Source: Bacteroidaceae bacterium | GTDB taxonomy: Bacteria; Bacteroidota; Bacteroidia; Bacteroidales; Bacteroidaceae | Assembly: GCA_017631315.1 (NCBI GenBank) | Contig: JAGBTN010000018.1 | Location: forward strand, 95,941-159,940 | Direction: 5' to 3' | Length of the DNA: 64,000 nucleotides | Shown: one piece after another, positions 4,278 to 46,255 of the stretch | How the letters are laid out: each line of letters opens with the position of its first letter | Numbering within the stretch: the first letter of the stretch is position 1 | Notes under the pieces: model-generated | Seen by the model: the letters and a program-made list of their open reading frames with translations, nothing else | Told to the model about the DNA's origin: nothing | The model's database searches: none | Program-made: the position numbers and the translations under genes

Positions 4278-4496
4278 AGGTCGTCGTCCCGCGCACCATT
4301 TTTAGTCCTATTTCATTCCGTTTTGCAACTCAAATTGAAATATCAAATGGAAAGTAAAACCATGTATTCAGCTTGCATTTTGATATTGTGTCTTGATAGA
4401 TGTTGCTATGCTACGACATATTTATATATAGGACCCGAAATTCGAGATCTGTCGAAAATAATGCAGCAAATGTTTGGCTATTCCATAAAAAAGACG

Positions 4497-4504
4497 TACC
4501 TTTG
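4497..4504 (+). promoter_or_regulatory. -7 promoter box TACCTTTG for the rpsF-rpsR-rplI operon
   Basis: Matches TAnnTTTG, 48 nt upstream of the rpsF ATG. Confidence 0.65.
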
Positions 4505-4551
4505 CCCCGCTTTTAAGCAACAAATTTATTAATTAATTCATTTAACGTATT

Positions 4552-4896
4552 ATGAACCAATACGAAACCGTTTTCATTTTGACTCCCGTTTTGTCTGATG
4601 AACAGATGAAGGAAGCGGTAGAGAAGTTCAAAGGCGTTCTCACAAAAGCTGGTGCTGAAATCATCAACGAAGAGAACTGGGGCCTGAAGAAACTTGCCTA
4701 TCCCATCGACAAGAAGACAACAGGATTCTACGAGCTCATTGAGTTCAATGCAGCTCCCGAGACTATCAAAACTCTCGAAATTGCTTATCGTCGCGACGAG
4801 AAAGTTCTTCGCTATCTCACCATTAAGATGGAGAAGTACGCCGCTGAATACGCAGCCAAGAGAAGAAGTAACAAACAAAACAAGCAGGAGGCATAA
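4552..4896 (+). CDS. rpsF: 30S ribosomal protein S6
   Basis: [18 protein letters not shown]...[10 protein letters not shown] is the canonical S6 sequence. It is followed by S18 and L9. Confidence 0.95.
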
Positions 4897-4898
4897 AC

Positions 4899-5165
4899 AT
4901 GGCACAGCAATCAGAAATCCGCTACTTGACCGCTCCCGCTATCGACGTCGAGAAGAAGAAGTATTGCCGTTTCAAGAAGAGCGGCATCAAGTATATTGAC
5001 TACAAGGACCCCGAATTCTTGAAGAAGTTCCTCAACGAGCAGGGTAAGATTTTGCCCCGCCGCATCACTGGCACTTCTCTCAAGTATCAGCGTCGTGTCG
5101 CTCAGGCAGTAAAGCGTGCGCGTCACCTCGCCCTGCTGCCCTTCGTAACCGATTTGATGAAGTAA
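4899..5165 (+). CDS. rpsR: 30S ribosomal protein S18
   Basis: 88 aa. [50 protein letters not shown] is canonical S18. Confidence 0.95.
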
Positions 5166-9566: not shown

Positions 9567-9654
9567 ATAATGCTTAACCATTATGCCCGGAAAGGTTAAC
9601 CATTTCCCAAAGAATGCTTAACCATTATTTTCAGCGATGTTAACGTGTTGGAAA
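9567..9654. repeat. four-unit 22-bp phased array with (G/C)TTAAC(C) cores (family locus b)
   Basis: The cores CTTAAC, GTTAAC, CTTAAC and GTTAAC start at 9573, 9595, 9617 and 9639, exactly 22 bp apart. Confidence 0.7.
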
Positions 9655-29200: not shown

Positions 29201-30835
29201 ATGAAAACAAAAAACGTCTGGATGTTTTTGTTGCTTTTGGCAACTTGCCTTGTTGGCAGTAGTGTCTTCTGTAGTTGTTCGGAGGACGATGTAGAAGAAA
29301 CTCCCCCTGCTACGGTTACGCCTCCTGGTGGCAATGCAACAGAGGAGAAGGACACTCACGAATATGTTGACCTCGGTTTACCTTCGGGCACCTTGTGGGC
29401 AACTTGTAATGTCGGTGCATCAAGGCCTGAGTTCCAAGGATATCTTTTTGCTTGGGGTGAGATAGAACCTAAAACAACGTATAATTGGAGTACATACAAG
29501 TACTGTGATGGCTCATATAAAACAATGACGAAGTACTGCACAAGTAGTTATTACGGAATAGTTGACGGAAAGATAGAACTTGAATCGTCAGACGATGCAG
29601 CCACAGCAAATTGGGGTAGCAACTGGCAGATACCATGCTACGAACAATTCAAAGAACTATTAGATGGCTTTAATACAACCACTTCATGGACGACCTTAAA
29701 TGGTGTCAAAGGCCGAAGGATAACAAGCAGAAGCAACGGTCATAGTATTTTTTTGCCTGCTGCGGGTTACCGCGAGAACACGAGTCTCAACGATGCAGGT
29801 AGCGAAGGTAACTACTGGTCGCGTTCAGTCAGTACGATTGAAAACTACGCTTATGGCTTGGACTTATATTCTAACGGTATCGGTACGGTCAGCGGCAGTC
29901 GTTACTACGGCAAGAGCGTCCGTCCCGTACGTGTTAAAAAAAACAAGGAAAGTGTAGTTATGGTAACTAACATAGAACTTTTAAAAGATAAACCATATTT
30001 ATATCTTAAGGATTTTACGTATTTAACTTCGATAGTTTTGCCTTGGTATGCTACAAACAAGAATGTAAAGTGGTACAGCAGCAACAATAGAATTGCAACA
30101 GTTAACCAAGCGGGTAAGGTGGCTGCAGTTGCTGTCGGCACATGCACGATTACCTGTTCTGCAACAGACGGTAGTGGTGTATGGGCGCAATGTGAAGTGA
30201 CGGTTCGTGATGATAGTTCTGGGACATTGGATGGTCATGATTATGTTGACCTTGGCCTGCCTTCGGGCATATTGTGGGCGACTTGCAATGTGGGTGCATC
30301 AAAGCCCGAAGAATATGGTGATTACTTTGCATGGGGCGAGACAGAACCTAAAACGACATACAACTGGAGCACCTACAAATACTGCAAAGGCACTTATGAT
30401 ACAATGACGAAGTACTGCACAAGTAGTCATTACGGAATAGTTGATGGAAAGAGAAAACTTGAACCATCAGACGATGCTGCCATAGCAAATTGGGGGGCAG
30501 ATTGGCATATGCCGAGTGATGGCCAATTCTATGAACTCGTCGATAGAGAATATACTATTTCAACCTGGATAACAATGAATGGCGTTTATGGCAGGAAGAT
30601 AACCAGTAAGAGCAACGGCAACAGTATCTTCTTGCCGGCTGCTGGTTATCGCGGCGGTACGAGTCTCCATGATGTAGGTAGCGATGGTAATTATGTATCG
30701 AATTCTTTAAATCCGTGGGGCTGCATTTACGCTTCCTGTCTGTCCTTCGATTCTAGCACTGTTAGGGCGAACTATGATGTCTACAGTACTCGTTGCGTTG
30801 GCTGGAGCGTTCGCCCCGTCCGTGTGAAGAAGTAA
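29201..30835 (+). CDS. lipoprotein with two duplicated FISUMP/DUF1566-like modules flanking a Big_2 (Ig-like) domain
   Basis: 544 aa with a lipobox LVGSSVFCSC. The module YVDLGLPSG.LWATCNVGAS.PE...FAWGE.EPKTTYNWSTYKYC...FLPAAGYR occurs twice (about aa 52-245 and 345-544). The Big_2-like segment is VTNIELL...NKNVKWYSSNNRIATVNQAGKVAAVAVGTCTITC. Confidence 0.7.
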   Translation: MKTKNVWMFLLLLATCLVGSSVFCSCSEDDVEETPPATVTPPGGNATEEKDTHEYVDLGLPSGTLWATCNVGASRPEFQGYLFAWGEIEPKTTYNWSTYKYCDGSYKTMTKYCTSSYYGIVDGKIELESSDDAATANWGSNWQIPCYEQFKELLDGFNTTTSWTTLNGVKGRRITSRSNGHSIFLPAAGYRENTSLNDAGSEGNYWSRSVSTIENYAYGLDLYSNGIGTVSGSRYYGKSVRPVRVKKNKESVVMVTNIELLKDKPYLYLKDFTYLTSIVLPWYATNKNVKWYSSNNRIATVNQAGKVAAVAVGTCTITCSATDGSGVWAQCEVTVRDDSSGTLDGHDYVDLGLPSGILWATCNVGASKPEEYGDYFAWGETEPKTTYNWSTYKYCKGTYDTMTKYCTSSHYGIVDGKRKLEPSDDAAIANWGADWHMPSDGQFYELVDREYTISTWITMNGVYGRKITSKSNGNSIFLPAAGYRGGTSLHDVGSDGNYVSNSLNPWGCIYASCLSFDSSTVRANYDVYSTRCVGWSVRPVRVKK

Positions 30836-30909: not shown

Positions 30910-30997
30910 GTGAAGTTTACCAACTTCTCTGCAGAACTTGCCCGACTTCACGTGTGAAGTTTGTCAACTTCACTGCAGAAGTTTTTCGACATCTCTA
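30910..30997. repeat. 22-bp phased array; 44-bp unit duplicated, each copy containing a GTGAAGTT-N4-AACTTC(AC) palindrome (family locus e)
   Basis: The units are GTGAAGTTTACCAACTTCTCTG, CAGAACTTGCCCGACTTCACGT, GTGAAGTTTGTCAACTTCACTG and CAGAAGTTTTTCGACATCTCTA. Confidence 0.65.
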
Positions 30998-31175: not shown

Positions 31176-31192
31176 AAAGGAGCAAAAAAAAG

Positions 31193-31265
31193 TCGGGGTG
31201 ACCCGACTCGAACGGGCGACCACCTGGTCCCAAACCAGGTGCGCTACCAACTGCGCTACACCCCG
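31193..31265 (-). tRNA. tRNA-Pro (anticodon TGG)
   Basis: I folded the cloverleaf by hand. The acceptor is CGGGGTG/CACCCCG, the D-arm GCGC-AGTTGGTA-GCGC, the anticodon arm CCTGG-TTTGGGA-CCAGG and the T-arm GCCCG-TTCGAGT-CGGGT. It is 73 nt and CCA is not encoded. Confidence 0.9.
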
Positions 31266-31275
31266 ATTGCTTTTT

Positions 31276-31349
31276 CATTGACCATTGACCATTGACCATT
31301 GACCATTGACCATTGACCATTGACCATTGACCATTGACCATTGACCATT
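31276..31349. repeat. perfect tandem heptamer array (CATTGAC)x10 plus a partial unit
   Basis: Ten identical units span 31276-31345, followed by CATT. The array lies between the tRNA-Pro 5' end and its only visible promoter box. Confidence 0.95.
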
Positions 31350-31435
31350 CTTGGTTTAGCACCAAGTCGCGCTTTTAATGCGCGGAGGACCATTGTCTAT
31401 GGAGACTTAAGGCCCAATGTCTTGCGAAAAGCGGT

Positions 31436-31443
31436 GCAAAGGT
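31436..31443 (-). promoter_or_regulatory. -7 promoter box (TACCTTTG on minus strand), candidate tRNA-Pro promoter
   Basis: Plus strand CAAAGGTA, about 170 nt upstream of the tRNA 5' end. I saw no closer TAnnTTTG. Confidence 0.45.
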
Positions 31444-31537
31444 ACGACTTTTTATTTAAAACACAAAGCAGAGATGCCAAAAAAGTTGCAGTGAACATAT
31501 TTTTTTATGTTTTTTCACTCAGGTCTTAATTTCTTCG

Positions 31538-31545
31538 TACTTTTG
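31538..31545 (+). promoter_or_regulatory. -7 promoter box TACTTTTG for the serC operon
   Basis: Matches TAnnTTTG, 63 nt upstream of the serC ATG. Confidence 0.6.
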
Positions 31546-31607
31546 CGTTTTCCTATGTTAAGAAAACGACAAAAACACTTTAGTAGAAAGAATAAACACT
31601 TAGGATA

Positions 31608-32675
31608 ATGAAAAAGTATAACTTTAATGCAGGCCCCTCCATCCTCCCTCGCGAGGTGATAGAGGCAACGTCTGCTGCTTGCTTGGACTTCGAGGGCAGC
31701 GGACTTTCTCTCATGGAAACAAGTCATCGTGCAAAGAACTTCCAGCCGATTGTCGACGAAGCAGTTGCTCTGTTCAAGGAACTGCTCAGCATACCCGAAG
31801 GCTACAGCGTTGTCTTCCTCGGCGGTGGTGCAAGTCTGGAGTTTTGCATGGTGCCCTACAACTTCCTCGAGAAGAAGGCAGCCTACCTCAATACCGGCGT
31901 CTGGGCAAGCAAGGCACAGAAGGAAGCAAAACTCTTCGGCGAAGTGGTGGAAGTGGCTTCCAGCGCCGACAAGAACTTTACATACATCCCCAAGAACTTC
32001 ACCATCCCAACGGATGCCGATTACTTACACATCACAAGCAACAACACCATCTACGGTACAGAACTCCTCAAAGACATAGACAGCCCCATTCCGGTGATTG
32101 CCGACATGAGTAGTGATATCTTCTCCCGTCCCATAGACGTTAGCAAATACGGCATGATTTATGGCGGTGCCCAGAAGAACCTGAGCATGGCAGGCGTCAC
32201 CTTCTGCATCATCAAGGAAGACTTGTTGGGCAAGGTGAGCCGTCCTATCCCCACAATGCTCGACTATCGTACACACGTCAAGAAGGGCAGCATGTTCAAC
32301 ACACCTCCCACAGTGCCCATCTATTGCGCATTGCAGAACCTGAAGTGGATTAAAAAGCAGGGCGGCGTCGAGGCAATGGAGAAGTTGGCCATCCAGCGTT
32401 CAGCAATTCTATACGAGGAGATTGACCGCAACAAACTCTTTGTCGGCACAGCCGAAGCAGACAGCCGCTCACGCATGAACATCACCTTCGTACTGAAGCC
32501 CGAGTATCAGGAACTGCAAGACGAGTTTATGGCATTTGCCACCAGTAAGGGCATGGTAGGCGTGAAGGGACATCGCGACGTAGGCGGCTTCCGTGCAAGT
32601 TGCTACAACGCTATGACCATAGAAGGTTGCGAGGCTCTCGTGGCTTGCATGAAGGAGTTTGAAAAGAGTCATTGA
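31608..32675 (+). CDS. serC: phosphoserine aminotransferase
   Basis: 355 aa. [24 protein letters not shown] and [14 protein letters not shown] (PLP lysine region) are canonical SerC. Confidence 0.95.
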
Positions 32676-32711
32676 CCATTCATCATTTACCATTGAGCAT
32701 TGACCATTAAT
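32670..32711. repeat. degenerate heptamer array (CATTGAC-like, 6 units); left inverted repeat of cassette 1
   Basis: The units are CATTGAC, CATTCAT, CATTTAC, CATTGAG, CATTGAC and CATTAAT. The serC stop codon TGA lies inside the first unit. Confidence 0.75.
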
Positions 32712-32725
32712 TCCAATGAGCAGAA

Positions 32726-33085
32726 ATGCGAAACGACAATCAGATACTTTTTGACAGTAAGGCCTTCGCTCTTCGGATAATAAGGCTATACAATTATCTC
32801 AAGCAAGAGAAACAGGTGTATGTCTTGTCAAAGCAGTTGTTGAGAAGCGGCACAAGCATAGGGGCTAATGTCCGAGAGAGTGTCAATGCTCAAAGTAGAA
32901 TGGATTTTATAAACAAATTAAACATTGCCCTAAAGGAGGCAAACGAAAGTGAATATTGGTTGGAACTGCTTCACGAATCAAATTATTTGGACGACCAACA
33001 GTTTGAGTCCATCTATAATGATTGTGGCAAGATAGCGGCGACTTTGACAAAAATCATAAGGACAACCAAAGCGACTGCAAACTAA
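32726..33085 (+). CDS. four-helix-bundle protein, 23S rRNA intervening-sequence protein / Avd-like family (PF05635)
   Basis: 119 aa. QLLRSGTSIGANVRES, DFINKLNIALKEANESEYWLELL are family hallmarks. Confidence 0.85.
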   Translation: MRNDNQILFDSKAFALRIIRLYNYLKQEKQVYVLSKQLLRSGTSIGANVRESVNAQSRMDFINKLNIALKEANESEYWLELLHESNYLDDQQFESIYNDCGKIAATLTKIIRTTKATAN

Positions 33086-33086
33086 T

Positions 33087-33118
33087 AATGGTCAACGGTC
33101 AATGTTCAATGTTCAATA
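33087..33118. repeat. heptamer array in reverse-complement orientation (GTCAATG-like, 4-5 units); right inverted repeat of cassette 1
   Basis: AATGGTCAACGGTCAATGTTCAATGTTCAATA. Segment 33087-33111 is reverse complementary to 32684-32708 at 21 of 25 positions. Confidence 0.75.
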
Positions 33119-33124
33119 GACAAA

Positions 33125-34042
33125 ATGAAAATACTTGTAGCAACAGAAAAGCCATTCAGCAAGGTTGCTGTAGATGGCATTAAGGCAGTGACAGATGCTG
33201 CCGGATATGAACTTATTCTCCTCGAGAAATATACAGAAAAGAGCCAGTTGCTCGATGCCGTAAAGGATGTCGATGCCATGATTATCCGCTCGGATAAAGT
33301 GGATGCAGAAGTCCTGGATGCAGCCAAGCAACTGAAGATTGTTGTACGTGCCGGTGCTGGTTACGACAACATCGACCTTGCTGCAGCCACAGCACACAAC
33401 GTGGTTGCCATGAACACACCCGGACAGAATGCCAACAGCGTGGCAGAACTGGTGTTCGGTTTGCTCGTCTTCGGCGTTCGCAACATGTTCAACGGTACAA
33501 GCGGCACAGAACTGATGGGCAAGCGGCTTGGCATCTTGGCCTTTGGCAACGTCGGTCGTAATGTAGCCCGCATTGCAAAAGGCTTTGGCATGGAGATTGC
33601 TGCTTACGATGCTTTCTGTCCTGCAGAAGCCATCGAGGCTGCCGGCGTGACGGCTGTAAAGAATCAGGACGAACTCTTCGAGACTTGCGACATCGTGTCG
33701 CTCCACATTCCTGCAACCCCCGAAACAAAGCAGAGCATCAACTACGACCTCGTAGGCAAGATGAAGGAGGGTGGCATCCTTGTGAACACTGCACGTAAGG
33801 AAGTCATCGACGAAGAAGGTCTCATCAAACTGATGGAGGAGCGTAAAGACCTGAAGTACCTTACAGACATCAAGCCCGATGCAGATGCAGAGTTCGCAGA
33901 GAAGTTTGCCGGTCGTTACTTCGCCACACCGAAGAAGATGGGCGCACAGACAGCAGAAGCAAACGTCAATGCCGGCATTGCAGCAGCAAACCAGATTGTG
34001 GGCTTCCTTCGCGATGGAATAACTAAATTCAAAGTCAACTAA
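33125..34042 (+). CDS. serA: D-3-phosphoglycerate dehydrogenase (short form, 2-hydroxyacid dehydrogenase family)
   Basis: 305 aa with the NAD-binding motif GILAFGNVGRNVA. It sits in the serC operon context typical of Bacteroidales. Confidence 0.85.
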   Translation: MKILVATEKPFSKVAVDGIKAVTDAAGYELILLEKYTEKSQLLDAVKDVDAMIIRSDKVDAEVLDAAKQLKIVVRAGAGYDNIDLAAATAHNVVAMNTPGQNANSVAELVFGLLVFGVRNMFNGTSGTELMGKRLGILAFGNVGRNVARIAKGFGMEIAAYDAFCPAEAIEAAGVTAVKNQDELFETCDIVSLHIPATPETKQSINYDLVGKMKEGGILVNTARKEVIDEEGLIKLMEERKDLKYLTDIKPDADAEFAEKFAGRYFATPKKMGAQTAEANVNAGIAAANQIVGFLRDGITKFKVN

Positions 34043-34087
34043 TAAATTTAATAATTTAAGGATTTTATATTTAACGATTAGATACTA

Positions 34088-34486
34088 ATGACAGAGGCCG
34101 AGTTGAAGGATAGGCTGATGAACTTTGCAATCAGAATCATTAAAATGGTTGATTCTATGCCTCATTCTATATCTTCTGCGGCTATTGCCAAACAAGTTGT
34201 ACGTTCAGGCACTTCGCCGATTGCCAACTATCGGGCTGCATGTCTTGGAAAGTCTAAAAGAGATTTCTTGAATAAGTTAAAGATGGTAGAGGAGGAACTG
34301 GATGAAACAGGGATGTGGCTCGACATCATCATGGAAACAGAAATGCTCCCACGTAAACGCGTCAGCGCATTATATGCCGAAAGTCAAGAACTCCTGAAAA
34401 TAATTATCAGTTCAATACTCACCGTACAGACTTCATTAAAATCGGAAGGCAAAGAAACTCCATCTACCCAATCTTCAAACAGATAA
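34088..34486 (+). CDS. four-helix-bundle protein, 23S rRNA intervening-sequence protein / Avd-like family (PF05635)
   Basis: 132 aa. QVVRSGTSPIANYRAA, DFLNKLKMVEEELDETGMWLDII are family hallmarks. It is only distantly related to the copy at 32726. Confidence 0.85.
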   Translation: MTEAELKDRLMNFAIRIIKMVDSMPHSISSAAIAKQVVRSGTSPIANYRAACLGKSKRDFLNKLKMVEEELDETGMWLDIIMETEMLPRKRVSALYAESQELLKIIISSILTVQTSLKSEGKETPSTQSSNR

Positions 34487-34561
34487 TCTTCAATGAGGTT
34501 TATCAATGCCCAAACAAATCAATCCTAAAATATAAAATCTTTAAATCCTAAAATAATAAAG

Positions 34562-35845
34562 ATGGCAAAAATAAAGCCTTTTAAGGGTGTTCGTCCACCG
34601 AAGGATCTTGTCGAGCAAGTAGAGAGCCGTCCTTATGATGTCCTTGACTCTGAGGAGGCTCGTTCTGAGGCTGGCGACAATGAGAAGTCGCTCTATCACA
34701 TCATCAAGCCCGAGATTGACTTCCCTGTCGGCACAAGCGAGTACGACCCTCGTGTCTATGAAAAAGCCGTCGAGAACTTCAAGATGTTCCAGGAGAAGGG
34801 CTGGCTCAAACAGGATGCAGAGGAGATGTATTACATCTATGCGCAGACAATAGGAGAATCCCCCCTTGGGGGACTGCGGGGGGCTTCCGGCAAGACGCAA
34901 TATGGTCTTGTTGTGGCTGCTGCTGTAGAGGACTACATGAACGGCGTTATCAAGAAGCATGAACTAACACGTCGTGATAAAGAAGAGGACCGCATGAAGC
35001 ATGTTCGTGTGAACAATGCCAACCTCGAACCCGTATTCTTCGCTTATCCTGATAATGCCGTGCTCGATGCACTTGTTGCCCGAATAACATCAACGGTTCC
35101 GGAATATGATTTCATTGCTCCCGTCGATGGTTTCCGTCATCAGTTGTGGCTGGTCAAGGAGCCAGAAGACATCAGCACAATCACCGAGACTTTTGCCTCT
35201 ATACCTTATTTATATATAGCAGACGGACATCATCGCAGCGCAGCAGCAGCACTTGTTGGAGCAGAAAAGGCAAAGCAGAACCCCAATCATCGTGGCGACG
35301 AGGAATACAACTTCTTTATGGCGGTTTGTTTCCCCGCAAGCCAACTCACGATTTTAGACTATAATCGTGTCGTTAAGGACCTCAACGGCATGACCGACGA
35401 GCAGTTCCTTGATGCACTTTCCAAAAACTTTGAAGTCACGAAGAAAGGTTTAGAGCCTTATCGACCTGCTGAGTTGCATGAATTCAGTCTGTATCTTGGA
35501 GGAGTATGGTATAGCCTCAAACTCAAAGAAGGTCTTTGCGACGAGAACGATCCCATTGGCAGCCTCGACGTAAGCATCAGCAGTAAACTCATCTTGGACG
35601 AGTTGCTCGGCATCAAAGACTTGCGTAGTGACAAGCGCATCGACTTTGTAGGTGGACTTCGTGGCTTGGGTGAGTTGAAGCGTCGTGTGGATAATGGCGA
35701 GATGAAGATGGCCTTGGCGCTTTATCCTGTCAGCATGACGCAAATCATGAATATTGCAGACAGTGGCAACATCATGCCTCCTAAAGCAACATGGTTCGAA
35801 CCGAAACTCCGTTCGGGTCTTGTGATTCATAAATTGGATGATTGA
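34562..35845 (+). CDS. DUF1015 domain-containing protein
   Basis: 427 aa. MAKIKPFKGVRP...YDVLDSEEAR, IKKHELTRRDKEEDR and YIADGHHRSAAA are DUF1015 signatures. It carries a GC-rich in-frame insert at 34856-34888. Confidence 0.85.
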   Translation: MAKIKPFKGVRPPKDLVEQVESRPYDVLDSEEARSEAGDNEKSLYHIIKPEIDFPVGTSEYDPRVYEKAVENFKMFQEKGWLKQDAEEMYYIYAQTIGESPLGGLRGASGKTQYGLVVAAAVEDYMNGVIKKHELTRRDKEEDRMKHVRVNNANLEPVFFAYPDNAVLDALVARITSTVPEYDFIAPVDGFRHQLWLVKEPEDISTITETFASIPYLYIADGHHRSAAAALVGAEKAKQNPNHRGDEEYNFFMAVCFPASQLTILDYNRVVKDLNGMTDEQFLDALSKNFEVTKKGLEPYRPAELHEFSLYLGGVWYSLKLKEGLCDENDPIGSLDVSISSKLILDELLGIKDLRSDKRIDFVGGLRGLGELKRRVDNGEMKMALALYPVSMTQIMNIADSGNIMPPKATWFEPKLRSGLVIHKLDD

Positions 35846-36425
35846 TATATACAAAACCATAAAAGACAAAAGCGAGGGTACTTACACTGAACTCAGGAGT
35901 AAGTTCCTCGCTTTTGCGCATCCTATCAGCACTGTCGAGGAGGCAATGGCACTTGTAGAGCAGTACCAGAAGAAGTACTACGATGCACGTCATGTGTGCT
36001 GGGCTTACATGATTGGAGCAGACAGAGAAACGTTTCGCTCAAACGACAACGGCGAACCGAGTGGTACGGCAGGCAAACCCATTCTTGGTCAAATAAACTC
36101 GAACGAGTTGACCGACATCATTATCCTTGTGGTCCGCTACTTCGGAGGTGTCAAACTTGGCACCAGCGGACTCATCGTGGCTTATCGTACAGCAGCAGCC
36201 GAAGCCATCGCCGCAGCAACGATAGAGGAACGACAGGTTGAGGCGACGTACGACTTCTCATTTGAATACCCCTTGATGACTGCGGTAATGAAAGTAGTCA
36301 GAGATATGAATGCACGCATTCTGGAGCAGTCATACGATATGGATTGTCGTATGTCTGTCAGCATACGAAAAGGTTTGCTCGACGAGCTGAAGACGCGCAT
36401 CCAGAAAGCCATTTCACCTTTCTGA
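35838..36425 (+). CDS. yigZ: YigZ / IMPACT family protein
   Basis: 195 aa containing SKFLAFAHPISTVEEA...YYDARHVCWAY...DNGEPSGTAGKPIL. The start overlaps the DUF1015 stop (ATGATTGA). Confidence 0.85.
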   Translation: MIDIYKTIKDKSEGTYTELRSKFLAFAHPISTVEEAMALVEQYQKKYYDARHVCWAYMIGADRETFRSNDNGEPSGTAGKPILGQINSNELTDIIILVVRYFGGVKLGTSGLIVAYRTAAAEAIAAATIEERQVEATYDFSFEYPLMTAVMKVVRDMNARILEQSYDMDCRMSVSIRKGLLDELKTRIQKAISPF

Positions 36426-42905: not shown

Positions 42906-44639
42906 TTATTTCTCCAGAATCTTGCGGGCCTTGGCGAGAGCGACATCGATGTGGTCGCAAATGTGGTCGCTCTCCATGAGGTCGTAGAATCGAGCTTTCA
43001 AGAGCTGGCTGTGTACCTTCTTGTTAACACCGGAAAGAATGACGTGGATGCCTTCAGCGTGATTCATCTCGATGAGTGTCTGCAGATTATGTATGCCTGT
43101 AGAATCGATGAAGGGCACTTTTCTCATCCGGATGATGCGCACTTTCGGACGTTCACGACCGCTGTTTGCCATAAGGTCGTCAAACTTGTTGGCAACACCA
43201 AAGAAGAATGGGCCGTTAATCTCATAAACTGTGCAGCCCTGGGGTATCGTCAAATGCTCCTCGTTCACCGAAATGTCCGAAACATCTCCCAAGTCGATTT
43301 CGTCCTTGATAACAGAGATTTCAGTTGTCTCCATGATGCGCTTCATAAAGAGGGCGCAGGCAAGAATAAGACCAACCTCGATGGCGATGGTGAGGTCGAA
43401 GACAACAGTCAGGAAGAACGTCACGCCAAGAACAATCACGTCGCTCTTCGGATTCTTGAACAAGCCCTTGACTGTTCGCCAACCGCTCATGTTGTATGCA
43501 ACAATGACCAATACCGCCGCAAGCGACGCCATGGGGATATATTCGGCATAAGGCATCAGCAAAAGCAGAATGGCCAGCAGGACAATGGCATGGATGATGC
43601 CTGCAACAGGCGTGCGGCCACCATTGTTGATGTTCGTCATCGTGCGGGCAATGGCTCCCGTGGCAGGGATGCCGCCAAAGAGTGGCGTAACCATGTTTGC
43701 CACACCCTGCGCAATGAGTTCCATGTTCGAGTCATGCTTGTCGCTGATAACGCCATCGGCTACTGCCGCCGACAACAGGCTCTCTATGGCTCCGAGAATG
43801 GCTATGGTGAAGGCAACCGGCATGAGTTTCTGGATAAGTTCAAAGGTAATGCTCGGAACAACCATCTCCGGCAGTTGTGCCTGAATTTGAAAACGGTCGC
43901 CAATCGTGTCGATTCCCTCAATGCCATACTGCTTCATAATGATGACAGCAATGGTTCCGAGCAGGATGCCATAAAGCGAACCGGGGATTTTGTTGAGGCC
44001 CGAAACCTTTTTCAATGCTTTAGGCAAGAAAATGATAACCAGCAGAGAACCAATGGCAACGATGAAATTCCAGAGGTTGAACGTCCCGATGTTCTGGGCA
44101 TAGCAAATCCATTTCCCGATAAAATCACCGGGCGTCTTCAGAGGAACACGTATTACTTCACCGGTGTTGCTTATCGCAGTTTGCGTCAAACCGAGAATAT
44201 CGCTGATTTGCGTCGTGAAGATGGTCAGCGCAATGCCTGCCGTGAAACCTATAATAATAGGATAAGGAATGAACTTAATAATAACACCCAGGCGGAAAGC
44301 GCCAAGAGCAATGAGGATGACACCAGCCAGGATGGTGGCAATGAGCAGACCCTGCAAACCATATTCTGGGTTGTTGACAATGCCATAGATGATGACAATG
44401 AAGGCACCGGTAGGACCACCAATCTGTACTTTGCTGCCTCCAAGCAACGAGATGAGGAAGCCTGCCACAATAGCAGTAATGATACCTTTCTCGGGAGTTA
44501 CGCCGCTGGCAATGCCGAAGGCAATGGCTAATGGTAAGGCAACAATGCCCACAATAATGCCTGCCATCAGGTCTTTCATGAACAATCCCTCATTGTAATT
44601 CTTCAAACAACTGATGATTCTTGGAGTCATTCCTTTCAT
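42906..44639 (-). CDS. SulP family inorganic anion transporter with C-terminal STAS domain
   Basis: I take the start at MKGMTPRIIS (44639). The upstream extension in the ORF track is just a translation of the heptamer repeat. The protein is polytopic, with a STAS-like C-terminus (VRIIRMRKVPFIDSTGIHNLQTL). Confidence 0.85.
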   Translation of the reverse strand: MKGMTPRIISCLKNYNEGLFMKDLMAGIIVGIVALPLAIAFGIASGVTPEKGIITAIVAGFLISLLGGSKVQIGGPTGAFIVIIYGIVNNPEYGLQGLLIATILAGVILIALGAFRLGVIIKFIPYPIIIGFTAGIALTIFTTQISDILGLTQTAISNTGEVIRVPLKTPGDFIGKWICYAQNIGTFNLWNFIVAIGSLLVIIFLPKALKKVSGLNKIPGSLYGILLGTIAVIIMKQYGIEGIDTIGDRFQIQAQLPEMVVPSITFELIQKLMPVAFTIAILGAIESLLSAAVADGVISDKHDSNMELIAQGVANMVTPLFGGIPATGAIARTMTNINNGGRTPVAGIIHAIVLLAILLLLMPYAEYIPMASLAAVLVIVAYNMSGWRTVKGLFKNPKSDVIVLGVTFFLTVVFDLTIAIEVGLILACALFMKRIMETTEISVIKDEIDLGDVSDISVNEEHLTIPQGCTVYEINGPFFFGVANKFDDLMANSGRERPKVRIIRMRKVPFIDSTGIHNLQTLIEMNHAEGIHVILSGVNKKVHSQLLKARFYDLMESDHICDHIDVALAKARKILEK

Positions 44640-44658
44640 GTCTTTTACTTTAATGCTG

Positions 44659-44666
44659 CAAAAGTA
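44659..44666 (-). promoter_or_regulatory. -7 promoter box (TACTTTTG on minus strand) for sulP
   Basis: Plus strand CAAAAGTA, 20 nt upstream of the start at 44639. Confidence 0.55.
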
Positions 44667-44672
44667 CAACAA

Positions 44673-44700
44673 ATTGAACATTGAACATTGAACATTGAAC
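44673..44700. repeat. perfect tandem heptamer array (ATTGAAC)x4
   Basis: Units lie at 44673, 44680, 44687 and 44694, between the divergent sulP and POT promoter boxes. Confidence 0.9.
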
Positions 44701-44709
44701 AATTTTTTA

Positions 44710-44717: not shown

Positions 44718-44749
44718 TCGGCAAATTATTAACTTAAATCAACTTAAAT

Positions 44750-46255
44750 ATGTTTGAAGGACAACCCAAAGGTTTATGGACTCTCGCTTTGGCTAATACA
44801 GGTGAGCGCTTCGGATACTACACGATGCTCGCTGTTTTTGCGCTATTCCTTGGCGAGAATTTTGGATTCGATGCTGGTACAGCAAGCGAGATTTACACAT
44901 GGTTTTTAACGGCAGTTTATTTCTTGCCCCTTGTCGGAGGTATGGCAGCCGATCGTTGGGGCTATAGTAAGATGGTCGTTATCGGCATCATGATCATGTT
45001 CCTTGGCTATTTGTTGCTCTCTGTACCTCTTGGCGGTGGCACAGTTGCAATTGCCGCTATGGGAGCAGCACTGTTGCTGGTTAGCCTCGGCACAGGACTC
45101 TTCAAAGGTAATCTGCAAGTGATGGTGGGCGATCTCTATAATGCCCCGGAATATGCAGACAAGCGCGATTCAGGTTTCTCACTTTTCTATATGGCAATCA
45201 ACGTTGGCGCCTTATTTGCTCCGACGGCAGCCATTGGCATTATGAACTGGGCACAAACATCGCTTGGATATAGCAAGGCGGACTCTTATCATTTTGCTTT
45301 TGCTGTAGCATGCGTGTCTGTCATCGTCTCTATCCTAATATATTTCTTCGGTAAGAGCACTTACAAACAGGTATTGACAGTGAAGAAAGATAAGGTTTCT
45401 GCAGCACAAGAGAAAGTTGAAGATATGTCTCCCGCAGAAACGCGTGAGCGTATTGTATGTCTGTGTCTGGTGTTTGCCGTTGTCATCTTCTTCTGGATGG
45501 CGTTCCATCAGAACGGTTTGACGCTGACATGGTTTGCCGATGAGTTTACCGCACGCTCTGCAACTGGTGTTACTGGCATGACCTTCAATGTGATGAACCT
45601 CATCTGGTGCATCTTTATCGTGTATGGAATCTGCGGCTTGTTTAGTGGAGGAAGTTCAAAGGGCAAAATGATAAATGCTTTACTCGTTCTTGTTCCTGCA
45701 GCAATTTTAGGTTATAATTACGTAAAGACATCTGGCGATGTAGTAACAGTGGATGCACCTATCTTCCAACAATTCAATCCTTGTTTCGTTGTTGCGCTGA
45801 CACCAATCAGCATAGCACTCTTCAGCTGGCTTGGCAAGAAGGGAAAAGAGCCTAAAGCACCAGTAAAGATTGGTTTGGGTATGCTTGTGGCGGCATGTGC
45901 CTATGTACTTATGATGGTTTGCAGCTTTGGCTTGCCAGCAACAAATCATCCTAATCATGTCTATGATTTCAACCCCAATCTTCTTATCAGCACTTATCTC
46001 ATCCTGACTTTTGCAGAGTTGTTGCTTTCGCCCATAGGTATTTCGTTTGTTACGAAAGTTGCTCCTCCAAAGTATAAGGGCATGATGATGGGTGGCTGGT
46101 TCGTGGCAACGGCTTTAGGCAATAAGCTCGTTAGTATTCCCGGTCATATGTGGGATATGCCGCTTTACATTGTTTGGGGTACATTGATGGGCATTTGTCT
46201 GCTTGCTGCTCTCTTTATTTTCTCTATCATTAAGAAGCTCAATAAGGTTGCTTAA
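44750..46255 (+). CDS. POT/PTR2 family peptide:H+ symporter (DtpT-like MFS)
   Basis: 501 aa. The N-terminal GLWTLALANTGERFGYYTMLAVFALFL is the POT signature ExxERFxYY region. Confidence 0.85.
   Translation: MFEGQPKGLWTLALANTGERFGYYTMLAVFALFLGENFGFDAGTASEIYTWFLTAVYFLPLVGGMAADRWGYSKMVVIGIMIMFLGYLLLSVPLGGGTVAIAAMGAALLLVSLGTGLFKGNLQVMVGDLYNAPEYADKRDSGFSLFYMAINVGALFAPTAAIGIMNWAQTSLGYSKADSYHFAFAVACVSVIVSILIYFFGKSTYKQVLTVKKDKVSAAQEKVEDMSPAETRERIVCLCLVFAVVIFFWMAFHQNGLTLTWFADEFTARSATGVTGMTFNVMNLIWCIFIVYGICGLFSGGSSKGKMINALLVLVPAAILGYNYVKTSGDVVTVDAPIFQQFNPCFVVALTPISIALFSWLGKKGKEPKAPVKIGLGMLVAACAYVLMMVCSFGLPATNHPNHVYDFNPNLLISTYLILTFAELLLSPIGISFVTKVAPPKYKGMMMGGWFVATALGNKLVSIPGHMWDMPLYIVWGTLMGICLLAALFIFSIIKKLNKVA

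Follow-up and report, generated by a model that had tools for sequence, protein, structure and literature searches.

A probable IVS-type palindromic cassette with a PF05635 gene at the serA-DUF1015 junction of a Bacteroidaceae operon

In a 64,000-nucleotide (nt) stretch of DNA from a Bacteroidaceae bacterium (GenBank assembly GCA_017631315.1, contig JAGBTN010000018.1, forward-strand positions 95,941 to 159,940; hereafter, the window), we analyzed an insert that separates serA, encoding a D-2-hydroxyacid dehydrogenase, from a DUF1015 gene. The insert is probably a palindromic gene cassette of the intervening sequence (IVS) type, that is, a PF05635 (Avd/S23p-fold) gene enclosed within two complementary arrays of 7-8-nt repeats, co-directional with the host genes and located at a serA-DUF1015 junction that originally measured about 1 nt. 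Below, this element is denoted cassette 2 and its open reading frame (ORF) c2; another such element, cassette 1 with the ORF c1, occupies the preceding gap of the same operon, between serC and serA.

Insertion at the serA-DUF1015 junction

Alignment with conspecific contigs in which the site is empty (L238 and L239, both encoding the identical c1 protein) delimits cassette 2 to 34044..34561 on the plus strand, between the serA stop codon followed by T at 34043 and the ATG of DUF1015 at 34562. These contigs join serA to DUF1015 as AAC-TAA-T-ATG, so that TAA-T-ATG at the empty site corresponds to TAA-T, 518 nt, ATG at the filled one. The window thus carries a discrete 518-nt insertion without a counterpart in conspecific strains, as had been proposed from the sequence alone. 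Contigs of this type are 98.5% identical to the window in serC, 100% in cassette 1 and 98.7% in serA. No target-site duplication is visible at the conspecific empty/filled junction. In the nearest species representatives, where DUF1015 is 83-89% identical, the serA-DUF1015 gaps are 4-17 nt long.

The presence of cassette 1 and that of cassette 2 vary independently among strains. Strains with the identical c2 contain either c1 (L229, L230, L233, L235) or a 59-nt spacer that is unrelated and includes a small GC hairpin (L231, L232, L234, L236) in the serC-serA gap, and strains with an identical cassette 1 but lacking c2 exist as well. Relatives of c1 (81-98% identical) are always found in the serC-serA gap, in many Prevotella including Xylanibacter ruminicola 23 (P. 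ruminicola 23), and relatives of c2 (82-89% identical) always in the serA-DUF1015 gap. Both cassettes have a patchy distribution over the serA tree, where filled and empty sites are intermingled. The c1 and c2 proteins, the only PF05635 copies in the window, are 33% identical, in agreement with the distant relationship assumed in the earlier note. Because the two cassettes are gained and lost independently, each lineage being tied to its own gap, these comparisons indicate two independent insertions rather than a local duplication, the interpretation favored in that note. A search for further PF05635 genes in about 1 Mb of flanks of 80 species representatives yielded only two c1 copies (L002, L038).

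Instead of c2, members of the P. ruminicola-type clade (L011, L058, L061, L062, L140, L143-L148) have a HIT-family gene of about 141 amino acids (aa) between serA and DUF1015; in L058 and L061, short tandem repeats of the TTTAATG type follow this gene, directly before DUF1015.

Complementary repeat arrays and the predicted stem

Both arms of cassette 2 are tandem arrays, each being the reverse complement of the other, rather than plain palindromes. The left arm (34040..34079, plus strand) is an array with a period of 8 nt and units TAATAAAT, TTAATAAT, TTAAGGAT, TTTATAT and TTAACGAT that begins at the serA stop codon. The right arm (34521..34560, plus strand), with units AATCCTAA, AATATAAA, ATCTTTAA and ATCCTAAA, ends 1 nt before the DUF1015 ATG. 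Tandem Repeats Finder assigned period 8 to 34040-34074 (4.4 copies) and 34521-34560, with about 4.4-5.1 copies overall. A repeat finder paired 34046-34079 with 34521-34554 (34 nt, 82% complementary); the 5-kb region contains no inverted repeats longer than this pair and that of cassette 1 (32672-32709 and 33086-33123). The inverted 17-mer match originally noticed (34056-34072 with 34528-34544) is the core of the longer pair, and the direct repeat reported at 34521 and 34544 is real and belongs to the 8-nt periodic array.

Chance does not account for this complementarity. In dinucleotide-preserving shuffles of the c2 spacers, 0 of 2000 reached the observed ungapped score of 17 (shuffled mean 8.2, standard deviation 1.4) or the gapped score of 39 (mean 18.6, standard deviation 3.3), so that the 17-mer withstands the shuffling test that had been suggested for it. 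For the cassette 1 spacers, too, none of the 2000 shuffles reached the observed score, gapped or ungapped. The arms are therefore significantly complementary and span the distance from the upstream stop codon to the downstream start codon. The description of the inverted repeats of the two cassettes as unrelated does not hold with respect to their kind: both consist of tandem 7-8-nt arrays paired with their reverse complements. Between the c2 stop codon and the right arm lies a 3' spacer (34487..34520, plus strand) that contains two TCAATG words, at 34490 and 34503, rather than three in the right flank as initially counted.

In the predicted RNA fold of the whole cassette, the flanks pair and the ORF is looped out. 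Both this fold and the duplex fold include a 19-bp core stem formed by 34054..34072 and 34528..34546 (plus strand), and the duplex fold adds 7 more pairs, for a total of -20.7 kcal/mol. Within the 3' spacer, only 34518-34520 are paired in the duplex fold, and a small local hairpin is predicted in the whole-cassette fold. Among c2 orthologs, the left spacer ranges from 45 to 125 nt, the differences amounting to whole repeat units; in cassette 1, the right arm is expanded in L235. When the window was scanned with Rfam, a tRNA-Pro was the sole match, and neither the cassette nor its surroundings contained a known RNA family.

The encoded protein

The 132-aa ORF c2 (34088..34486, plus strand, ATG start) matches the hidden Markov models of both PF05635 (E-value 1.8e-14, 54.3 bits, cut-off 33.8) and TIGR02436 (E-value 1.4e-22, 80 bits, cut-off 24), which substantiates the original assignment of a PF05635-type ORF of this length between serA and DUF1015. 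The c1 protein also matches both families well above the curated cut-offs. An AlphaFold2 monomer model of c2, with a predicted local distance difference test score of 92.7, consists of four helices (residues 3-22, 28-52, 57-83 and 89-120). In a Foldseek search, this model matched 2RLD, 2GSC (Xcc0516) and the Avd structures 4DWL and 8UB7, with template modeling (TM) scores of 0.91, 0.85 and 0.78-0.83, respectively. By sequence, the closest solved relative is 2RLD (BT_0352; E-value 3e-18, 34-35% identity), a protein of Bacteroides origin with five chains in the crystal. A profile (A1) search of the PDB reached 2RLD only, and Avd was linked to c2 through the fold search alone. No nuclease or recombinase domain was found in c2, for which the profile matches comprised only PF05635, TIGR02436 and two sub-threshold NCBIfam subfamily models labeled 'hypothetical protein'. 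A role in defense or in phages was considered but received no support, PADLOC giving no match and PHROGs one weak, function-unknown match, for c1.

The fold leads to an alternative in which c2 is an orphan avd gene, left behind when a diversity-generating retroelement (DGR) lost its reverse transcriptase and template repeat. Apart from the Avd-like fold (TM score 0.78-0.83 to 4DWL and 8UB7), the observations speak against such an origin, which we deem extremely improbable: the neighbors are serC, serA, DUF1015, YigZ and M3 peptidase genes, without a reverse transcriptase in the operon, sequence profiles do not reach Avd, and the habitat of the family at large is housekeeping operons (see below).

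Decay of these ORFs does occur. The c1 copy in the species representative L002 (1462-1817) is split by a frameshift, with tblastn pieces covering residues 1-78 and 79-119 in different frames, and PF05635 genes in L164, L205 and L225, from the metagenome set, also look truncated.

Purifying selection and exchange between genomes

Divergent c2 copies differ by a nonsynonymous divergence (pN) of 0.10-0.12 and a synonymous divergence (pS) of 0.72-0.84, and dN/dS, about 0.05 for L081 versus L089, is close to that of serA and serC. These values indicate that the c2 protein is under strong purifying selection.

Several pairs of genomes share nearly identical cassettes in diverged surroundings. For L081 and L082, cassette pS (c2) is 0.038, compared with 0.44-0.64 for the flanking serC, serA and DUF1015; for L095 and L096 (c2), the values are 0.012 and 0.41-0.51; and for L130 and L136 (c1), 0.027 and 0.44-0.47. 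As the loci had been selected for identical proteins, pN is 0 by construction, but this selection does not account for pS being so low compared with the flanks. The tracts of about 100% identity extend approximately from the upstream stop to the downstream start, matching the cassette. Such near-identity of the cassette next to far more diverged flanking genes indicates horizontal exchange between diverged genomes at the same site. The exchange probably occurs by homologous recombination through the flanks or arms, since the variable ends of the tracts fit this route better than a precise site-specific mechanism.

Between the window and L239, by contrast, the diverged tract reaches beyond the cassette, covering c2 and the whole of DUF1015, which is 95% identical, compared with about 99-100% for the neighboring genes. 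The first approximately 50 nt of DUF1015 (34562-34610) are 71% identical between the window and L238/L239, with the protein starting as MAKIKPFKGV and MAVVKPFRGI, respectively; this diverged start marks a recombination tract associated with whether the cassette is there or not. Near-identical backgrounds can also hold wholly different spacer modules, judging from L134, with the c1 cassette, and L032, with a 103-nt hairpin that has other arms, the flanks of which are 97-100% identical. Phages were examined as a possible vector, and the idea was abandoned: the core of the c2 arm, RGATTTTATATTTWRNGATT, had 23 single, unpaired matches in unrelated AT-rich viral contigs, attributable to chance.

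These data bear on the view of c2 as an ordinary ancestral operon gene, subject to vertical descent and losses, with the inverted repeat being a by-product of the AT-rich spacer. In its favor, c2 orthologs (82-89% identical) occupy the same serA-DUF1015 gap in other species, and distant c2 copies differ at the nucleotide level about as much in the cassette as in the flanks. Vertical descent is nevertheless contradicted by the absence of the cassette from conspecific strains and the nearest species, by its patchy distribution on the serA tree, by cassette pS values up to about 35-fold below those of the flanks in independent pairs, and by the inverted repeat, which was matched by 0 of 2000 shuffles and is a family-wide property. 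This possibility therefore appears highly improbable. The concern that the ORF is ancestral and syntenic across the family was justified with regard to synteny, which extends to several other species with flanking proteins 74-84% identical; with regard to ancestry it was not, given the patchiness and the reduced synonymous divergence, which point to horizontal exchange. Because c2 is found at the serA-DUF1015 gap in other species, the insertion is neither recent nor private to the source genome. The comparisons depict a cassette that stays at its site over time, moves between genomes by exchange and, in some cases, has been replaced or lost.

PF05635 genes at other sites and the family-wide architecture

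Proteins resembling c2 (58-74% identical) are encoded in gaps of other operons: between methylmalonyl-CoA epimerase and carboxyltransferase (mce-mmdA; L099-L106, L150, L151), between kdgK and eda (L152, L155, L160), and between the two methylmalonyl-CoA mutase subunits (mutA-mutB; L154). Proteins at different sites are at most 74% identical. More distant members reside between nuoD and nuoH (L171, with a second copy 2 kb downstream) and between M20 peptidase and lyase genes (argE-like-argH; L173). Published examples include a PF05635 member between gmk and nadD of Flavobacterium columnare (PMC5524665) and one between cmr3 and cmr2 of a cyanobacterium (PMC3936711).

L171 is a second case of two neighboring cassettes within one gene cluster: those at 2489-2848 (nuoD-nuoH) and at 4461-4820 (downstream of nuoH) both have GATTTAC-type arms. 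In L163, a metagenomic PF05635 gene (129-548) is followed, 170 nt downstream, by a co-directional tRNA gene (722-795), which suggests that cassettes also occupy tRNA transcription units.

A metagenome scan of rumen, soil, marine and other samples provided 80 diverse loci with proteins 34-74% identical to c2, of which 70 genes had enough flanking sequence for family-level tests; the gene calls were heuristic, being the longest ORFs. The best inverted match between the two flanks had a median score of 15.5 for these 70 genes and 8 for control ORFs from the same contigs; a score of at least 14 was obtained for 41 of the 70 PF05635 genes and for none of the 34 controls (Mann-Whitney p 1.5e-13). 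Nearly all arms consist of tandem heptamers, 7 being the sole period detected, and they are polar. At least two copies of ATTTAC were present on the 5' side of 23 genes and on the 3' side of 2, and at least two copies of GTAAAT on the 5' side of 1 and on the 3' side of 21. Arms start a median of 5 nt past the upstream stop codon and end a median of 7.5 nt ahead of the downstream start codon; the median spacers are about 50 nt.

Of 56 diverse family members, 48 are co-directional with both neighbors, compared with a baseline of 14 of 22 (binomial p 2e-4), and 66 of 69 are co-directional with the upstream gene, so that the preference for operon-internal gaps suspected from the two cassettes receives support. 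None of the 20 metagenomic PF05635 loci scanned with Rfam lies in rRNA, and the remaining sampled loci mostly have protein-coding neighbors. Judging from these sequences, the architecture 5' (ATTTAC-type)n - ORF - (GTAAAT-type)n 3' between co-directional genes is a family-wide one.

The host operon and a possible mode of maintenance

The operon is part of a string of co-directional plus-strand genes at 31608-36425: serC (class V aminotransferase, 31608..32675), its first gene; c1; serA (33125..34042, stop codon TAA at 34040-34042); c2; the DUF1015 gene (34562..35845); and the UPF0029/YigZ gene (35838..36425), which overlaps the DUF1015 gene. The neighborhood of c2 also includes an M3 peptidase gene. 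Cassette 1 (32670..33123, plus strand) consists of a left CATTGAC array (32670-32709) overlapping the serC codons CAT TGA, the 119-aa c1 ORF (32726-33085, plus strand) and a right GTCAATG/GTTCAAT array (33086-33123). As Bacteroidota promoters differ from the sigma-70 type, we scanned simply for the Bacteroidetes -7 consensus TAnnTTTG. On the plus strand of 31400-36000, the sole match, TACTTTTG (31538..31545), is located 63 nt upstream of the serC ATG, and there is none inside the operon; a single consensus match is merely suggestive.

Together with the strong orientation bias, this sole motif upstream of serC suggests that the ORF depends on read-through from the host. Under the IVS-type interpretation, the cassette would lack a promoter of its own and would be transcribed within the serC-serA-DUF1015 mRNA, where the arms would pair into a stem of about 19-26 bp with the ORF looped out. 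The stem would bring the serA stop codon next to the DUF1015 start codon, restoring the proximity of the empty site (1-17 nt) and thereby limiting the cost of the cassette to the operon. By analogy with the intervening sequences of 23S rRNA, the stem could be a substrate of RNase III, which would release the ORF RNA; given that the Coxiella 23S IVS has the same parts and a stem cut by RNase III, such processing is a reasonable expectation here. Colonization of new sites would be rare.

Several observations weigh against this interpretation. The stem in the window is AU-rich and, at -20.7 kcal/mol, weak, and it is slightly more degenerate than those of the orthologs (score 17 versus 19-31). Comparison of the arm sequences by eye revealed no compensatory substitutions among c2 orthologs, and the window's two arm changes weaken the stem. 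Across 74 spacer hairpins, there is no sense-strand bias (mean sense-antisense difference in duplex energy -0.2 kcal, p 0.66) and no enrichment of G-U pairs on the sense strand; in the absence of such bias, the complementarity could be preserved at the level of the DNA. A model in which the stem serves purely to excise the ORF has no need for the ORF-less hairpins and one-sided arrays with cassette units described below. Finally, most of the comparison sequences are metagenome contigs, any single one of which could be a chimeric assembly; several independent contigs from other samples encode the identical c2 or c1 protein in the same gene neighborhood.

ORF-less hairpins and solo arrays

Hairpins of similar build but without an ORF are common in the spacers of this operon across Bacteroidales (L015, L021, L022, L044, L049, L070-L072, L040). 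Arms of the c2 type occur without an ORF in the serC-serA gap of L096, and c1-type CATTGAC/GTTCAAT hairpins in the serA-DUF1015 gap of L045, in the DUF1015-yigZ gap of L001 and after mmdA in L099 and L100. The L096 element was evaluated as an internal-deletion derivative of a full cassette and rejected as such, because only the arms align and the loop is unrelated.

These elements make it possible, although not probable, that the cassettes belong to a mobile hairpin family acting at the DNA level, similar to miniature inverted-repeat transposable elements (MITEs) or to the doublets of repetitive extragenic palindromic (REP) sequences and their associated transposases (REPIN/RAYT). The arrays would then be terminal repeats or DNA hairpins, the PF05635 copies would be the 'autonomous' or founder elements, and the ORF-less hairpins would be non-autonomous derivatives spread by the protein or by a host enzyme. 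Besides the ORF-less elements in L096 (which shares the arms alone with the cassette), L045, L001 and L099/L100, this reading draws on a GC-rich inverted-repeat element found in both gaps of L053 and in one gap of L095, on the equal stability of the stems on either strand and on the strain-variable copy number of the arm repeats. It is at odds with the lack of a target-site duplication at the conspecific empty site and with the protein itself, a four-helix bundle without a nuclease or recombinase domain and without a PADLOC match. Moreover, homologous recombination accounts for spread within a site, relocation to new sites happened long ago, proteins from different sites being at most 74% identical, and the strong co-orientation with host genes is unexpected for a DNA hairpin alone.

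The GC-rich element has 36-44-nt near-perfect inverted repeats (AGACCCACCCCC..CCCCTCCC and GGGAGGGG..GGGGGTGGGTCT), a partly conserved loop of about 70 nt and no ORF; it is present at 4764-4938 and 5845-6000 of L053 and in the serC-serA gap of L095, and resembles a MITE family. A short CTCCCC/GGGGAG hairpin in the 59-nt spacer found in place of cassette 1 in L231 and other conspecific strains may be a relic of this element.

One-sided arrays with cassette units are found as well. A CATTGAN x4 array lies in the 'empty' serC-serA gap of L004, and GATTTAAR arrays (2-7 copies) are present in the serC-serA gap of 12 of the 26 c2-bearing loci and in none of the approximately 99 c2-free ones. Another explanation, which we consider unlikely, starts from these arrays: the PF05635 pentamer would bind the 7-8-nt repeats, as RNA or DNA, both around its own gene and in solo arrays, and this binding would autoregulate the protein or tune the host operon, by analogy with TRAP or CsrA on repeated motifs or with Avd on the DGR spacer RNA. 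The family-wide consensus and polarity of the repeats (ATTTAC 5', GTAAAT 3'), the strong purifying selection on the protein and the co-occurrence of GATTTAAR arrays with c2 agree with such a partnership, as do the (CATTGAC)x10.6 array at 31276-31349 and the (ATTGAAC)x4 array at 44673-44701 of the c1-bearing window, and the pentameric state of the fold relatives 2RLD, 2GSC and Avd, the last of which binds RNA in the DGR ribonucleoprotein. However, the units vary among proteins that are 58-74% identical (ATTTACG, ATTTTCG, AAAGTAC, ATTTACA), the 12 loci with co-occurrence are phylogenetically close and thus represent few independent events, and CATTGAC arrays are also found at loci with no c1 gene in view.

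A broader proposal, speculative and with the odds clearly against it, is that PF05635 proteins belong together with short tandem heptamer arrays in a single widespread system, in which a ring-shaped pentamer recognizes 7-nt repeats, as RNA or single-stranded DNA, at its own gene, at ORF-less hairpins and at solo arrays, and either drives or stabilizes the repeats or controls processing and translation at operon junctions. If true, this would give the 'orphan Avd / S23p' family a function and account for the intergenic heptamer repeats of Bacteroidota, Cyanobacteria and others, which have long been puzzling.

Of the approximately 8 arrays with period 7 or 8 in the window, 4 are of the CATTGA[AC] class. 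The perfect (CATTGAC)x10.6 array is built from the same heptamer as the cassette 1 arms. A distance of 10 nt separates it from the 5' end of tRNA-Pro(TGG), encoded on the minus strand at 31192-31265, and serC begins about 260 nt downstream of it. In P. ruminicola 23, an array of this kind, (CATTGAC)x4, also precedes serC (L140, 914-941). The ATTGAAC array (4.1 copies, 100% matches), the unit of which is a variant found in the right arm of cassette 1, is followed by a 10-nt repeat (1.9 copies) at 44731-44749. It is upstream of a plus-strand ORF that starts at 44750 and may be overlapped by a long minus-strand ORF (42906-44702, TTG start); the region is probably a divergent intergenic one. A 22-nt tandem repeat, GAAGTTTACCAACTTCACTGCA, at 30912-30984 (3.3 copies, 69% matches) is downstream of a 544-aa ORF that ends at 30835, and a similar 22-nt array is present at 9569-9628.

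The 'empty' spacers of the operon are often one-sided tandem arrays that begin at the stop codon (L001, L002, L004, L066, L081, L089), for example, (TAGTTCA)x4.7 after serC in L001 and AAGTAAAC repeats after serA in L002 and L066. Many array units contain a stop triplet, which, with a period of 7 or 8, places stops in all three frames.

Relationship to known systems

The closest known counterparts of cassette 2 are the 23S rRNA IVS with an S23p/PF05635 ORF, described in Leptospira, Coxiella burnetii, Haemophilus and Brucella. These share with the cassette the ORF family, a size of about 0.4-0.5 kb, terminal inverted repeats with a predicted stem around the ORF, the co-orientation of the ORF inside the host transcription unit and a sporadic distribution, attributed to horizontal transfer in the case of the IVS. 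In the Coxiella IVS, RNase III cuts a terminal stem of 28 bp, and the PF05635 ORF is accompanied by heptamers (GACAGAT) that vary in number among strains (PMC4990558), resembling the strain-variable tandem repeats next to the ORF here, which form period-8 arrays. The cassette differs in occupying an intercistronic junction of an mRNA operon, serA-DUF1015, instead of helix 9, 25 or 45 of 23S rRNA, and in the strong purifying selection that acts on c2, whereas the Coxiella ORF is decaying and apparently untranslated. Excision by RNase III has been shown for the IVS and, for the cassette, would be expected by analogy. Thus, the cassette is built like an IVS, and because its location outside 23S rRNA lacks the defining feature of that class, we file it as a variant rather than a member.

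Avd (4DWL, 8UB7), which forms a positively charged pentameric barrel and binds RNA as part of the DGR ribonucleoprotein, has the same four-helix-bundle fold as c2 (TM scores 0.78-0.83). The genomic setting and flanking repeats are different, with no reverse transcriptase or template and variable repeats near the cassette, and the sequence similarity is below profile detection. BT_0352 (2RLD) and Xcc0516 (2GSC), stand-alone structures of the 'S23 ribosomal protein family' to which no function is assigned, resemble c2 in fold and were compared as structures only.

Arrays of the TAACTGA heptamer have been reported from intergenic regions of Beggiatoaceae, Cyanobacteria and Bacteroidetes, without an explanation or a link to the PF05635 family (MacGregor 2015, PMC4679880). 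Like the arms of the cassette, they are placed after one gene's stop codon and before the start codon of the following gene, in many cases stopping just a few nt short of that start codon, have a period of 7 and are absent from close relatives with the same gene order. Unlike the cassette, these are direct repeats only, with no paired complementary array or PF05635 gene reported.

With REP/REPIN-RAYT systems and MITEs, the cassette shares palindromic elements at intercistronic positions and a gene between inverted repeat copies that are also present without the gene in other intergenic spaces; it differs from them in lacking a HUH/Y1 transposase or other catalytic domain and a target-site duplication, and in having tandem 7-8-mer arrays rather than a single palindrome as arms. 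Accordingly, we rejected a RAYT/REP unit, the flanked gene encoding a four-helix bundle and not the HUH-Y1 (RAYT) transposase. A classical transposon or MITE appears improbable, as terminal inverted repeats are present but no target-site duplication and no catalytic domain in the element; ORF-less copies of the arms do occupy other gaps. We found no description in the literature of PF05635 cassettes with inverted heptamer arrays in mRNA operons, which is weak evidence given that subscription journals were for the most part not covered.

Implications for the PF05635 family

PF05635 is a very large family of unknown function, with about 8000 relatives scored in the search with cassette 1 alone; it takes its name from inserts in 23S rRNA, a rare habitat, and the DGR protein Avd is the sole relative that has been characterized. 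The analysis of a single locus led to three results at the family level: the usual habitat in our sample is the junction of co-directional genes in housekeeping operons, the gene forms a unit with polar, complementary heptamer arrays, and this unit is kept by selection and exchanged between species. In this light, earlier reports of '23S_rRNA_IVP genes associated with cas operons', such as the cmr3-cmr2 gene (PMC3936711), are open to another reading. Prevotella strains naturally differ in the presence or absence of each cassette, and a defined model can be offered for these units, in which an RNA stem, cutting by RNase III, translational coupling and binding of the repeats may each have a part.

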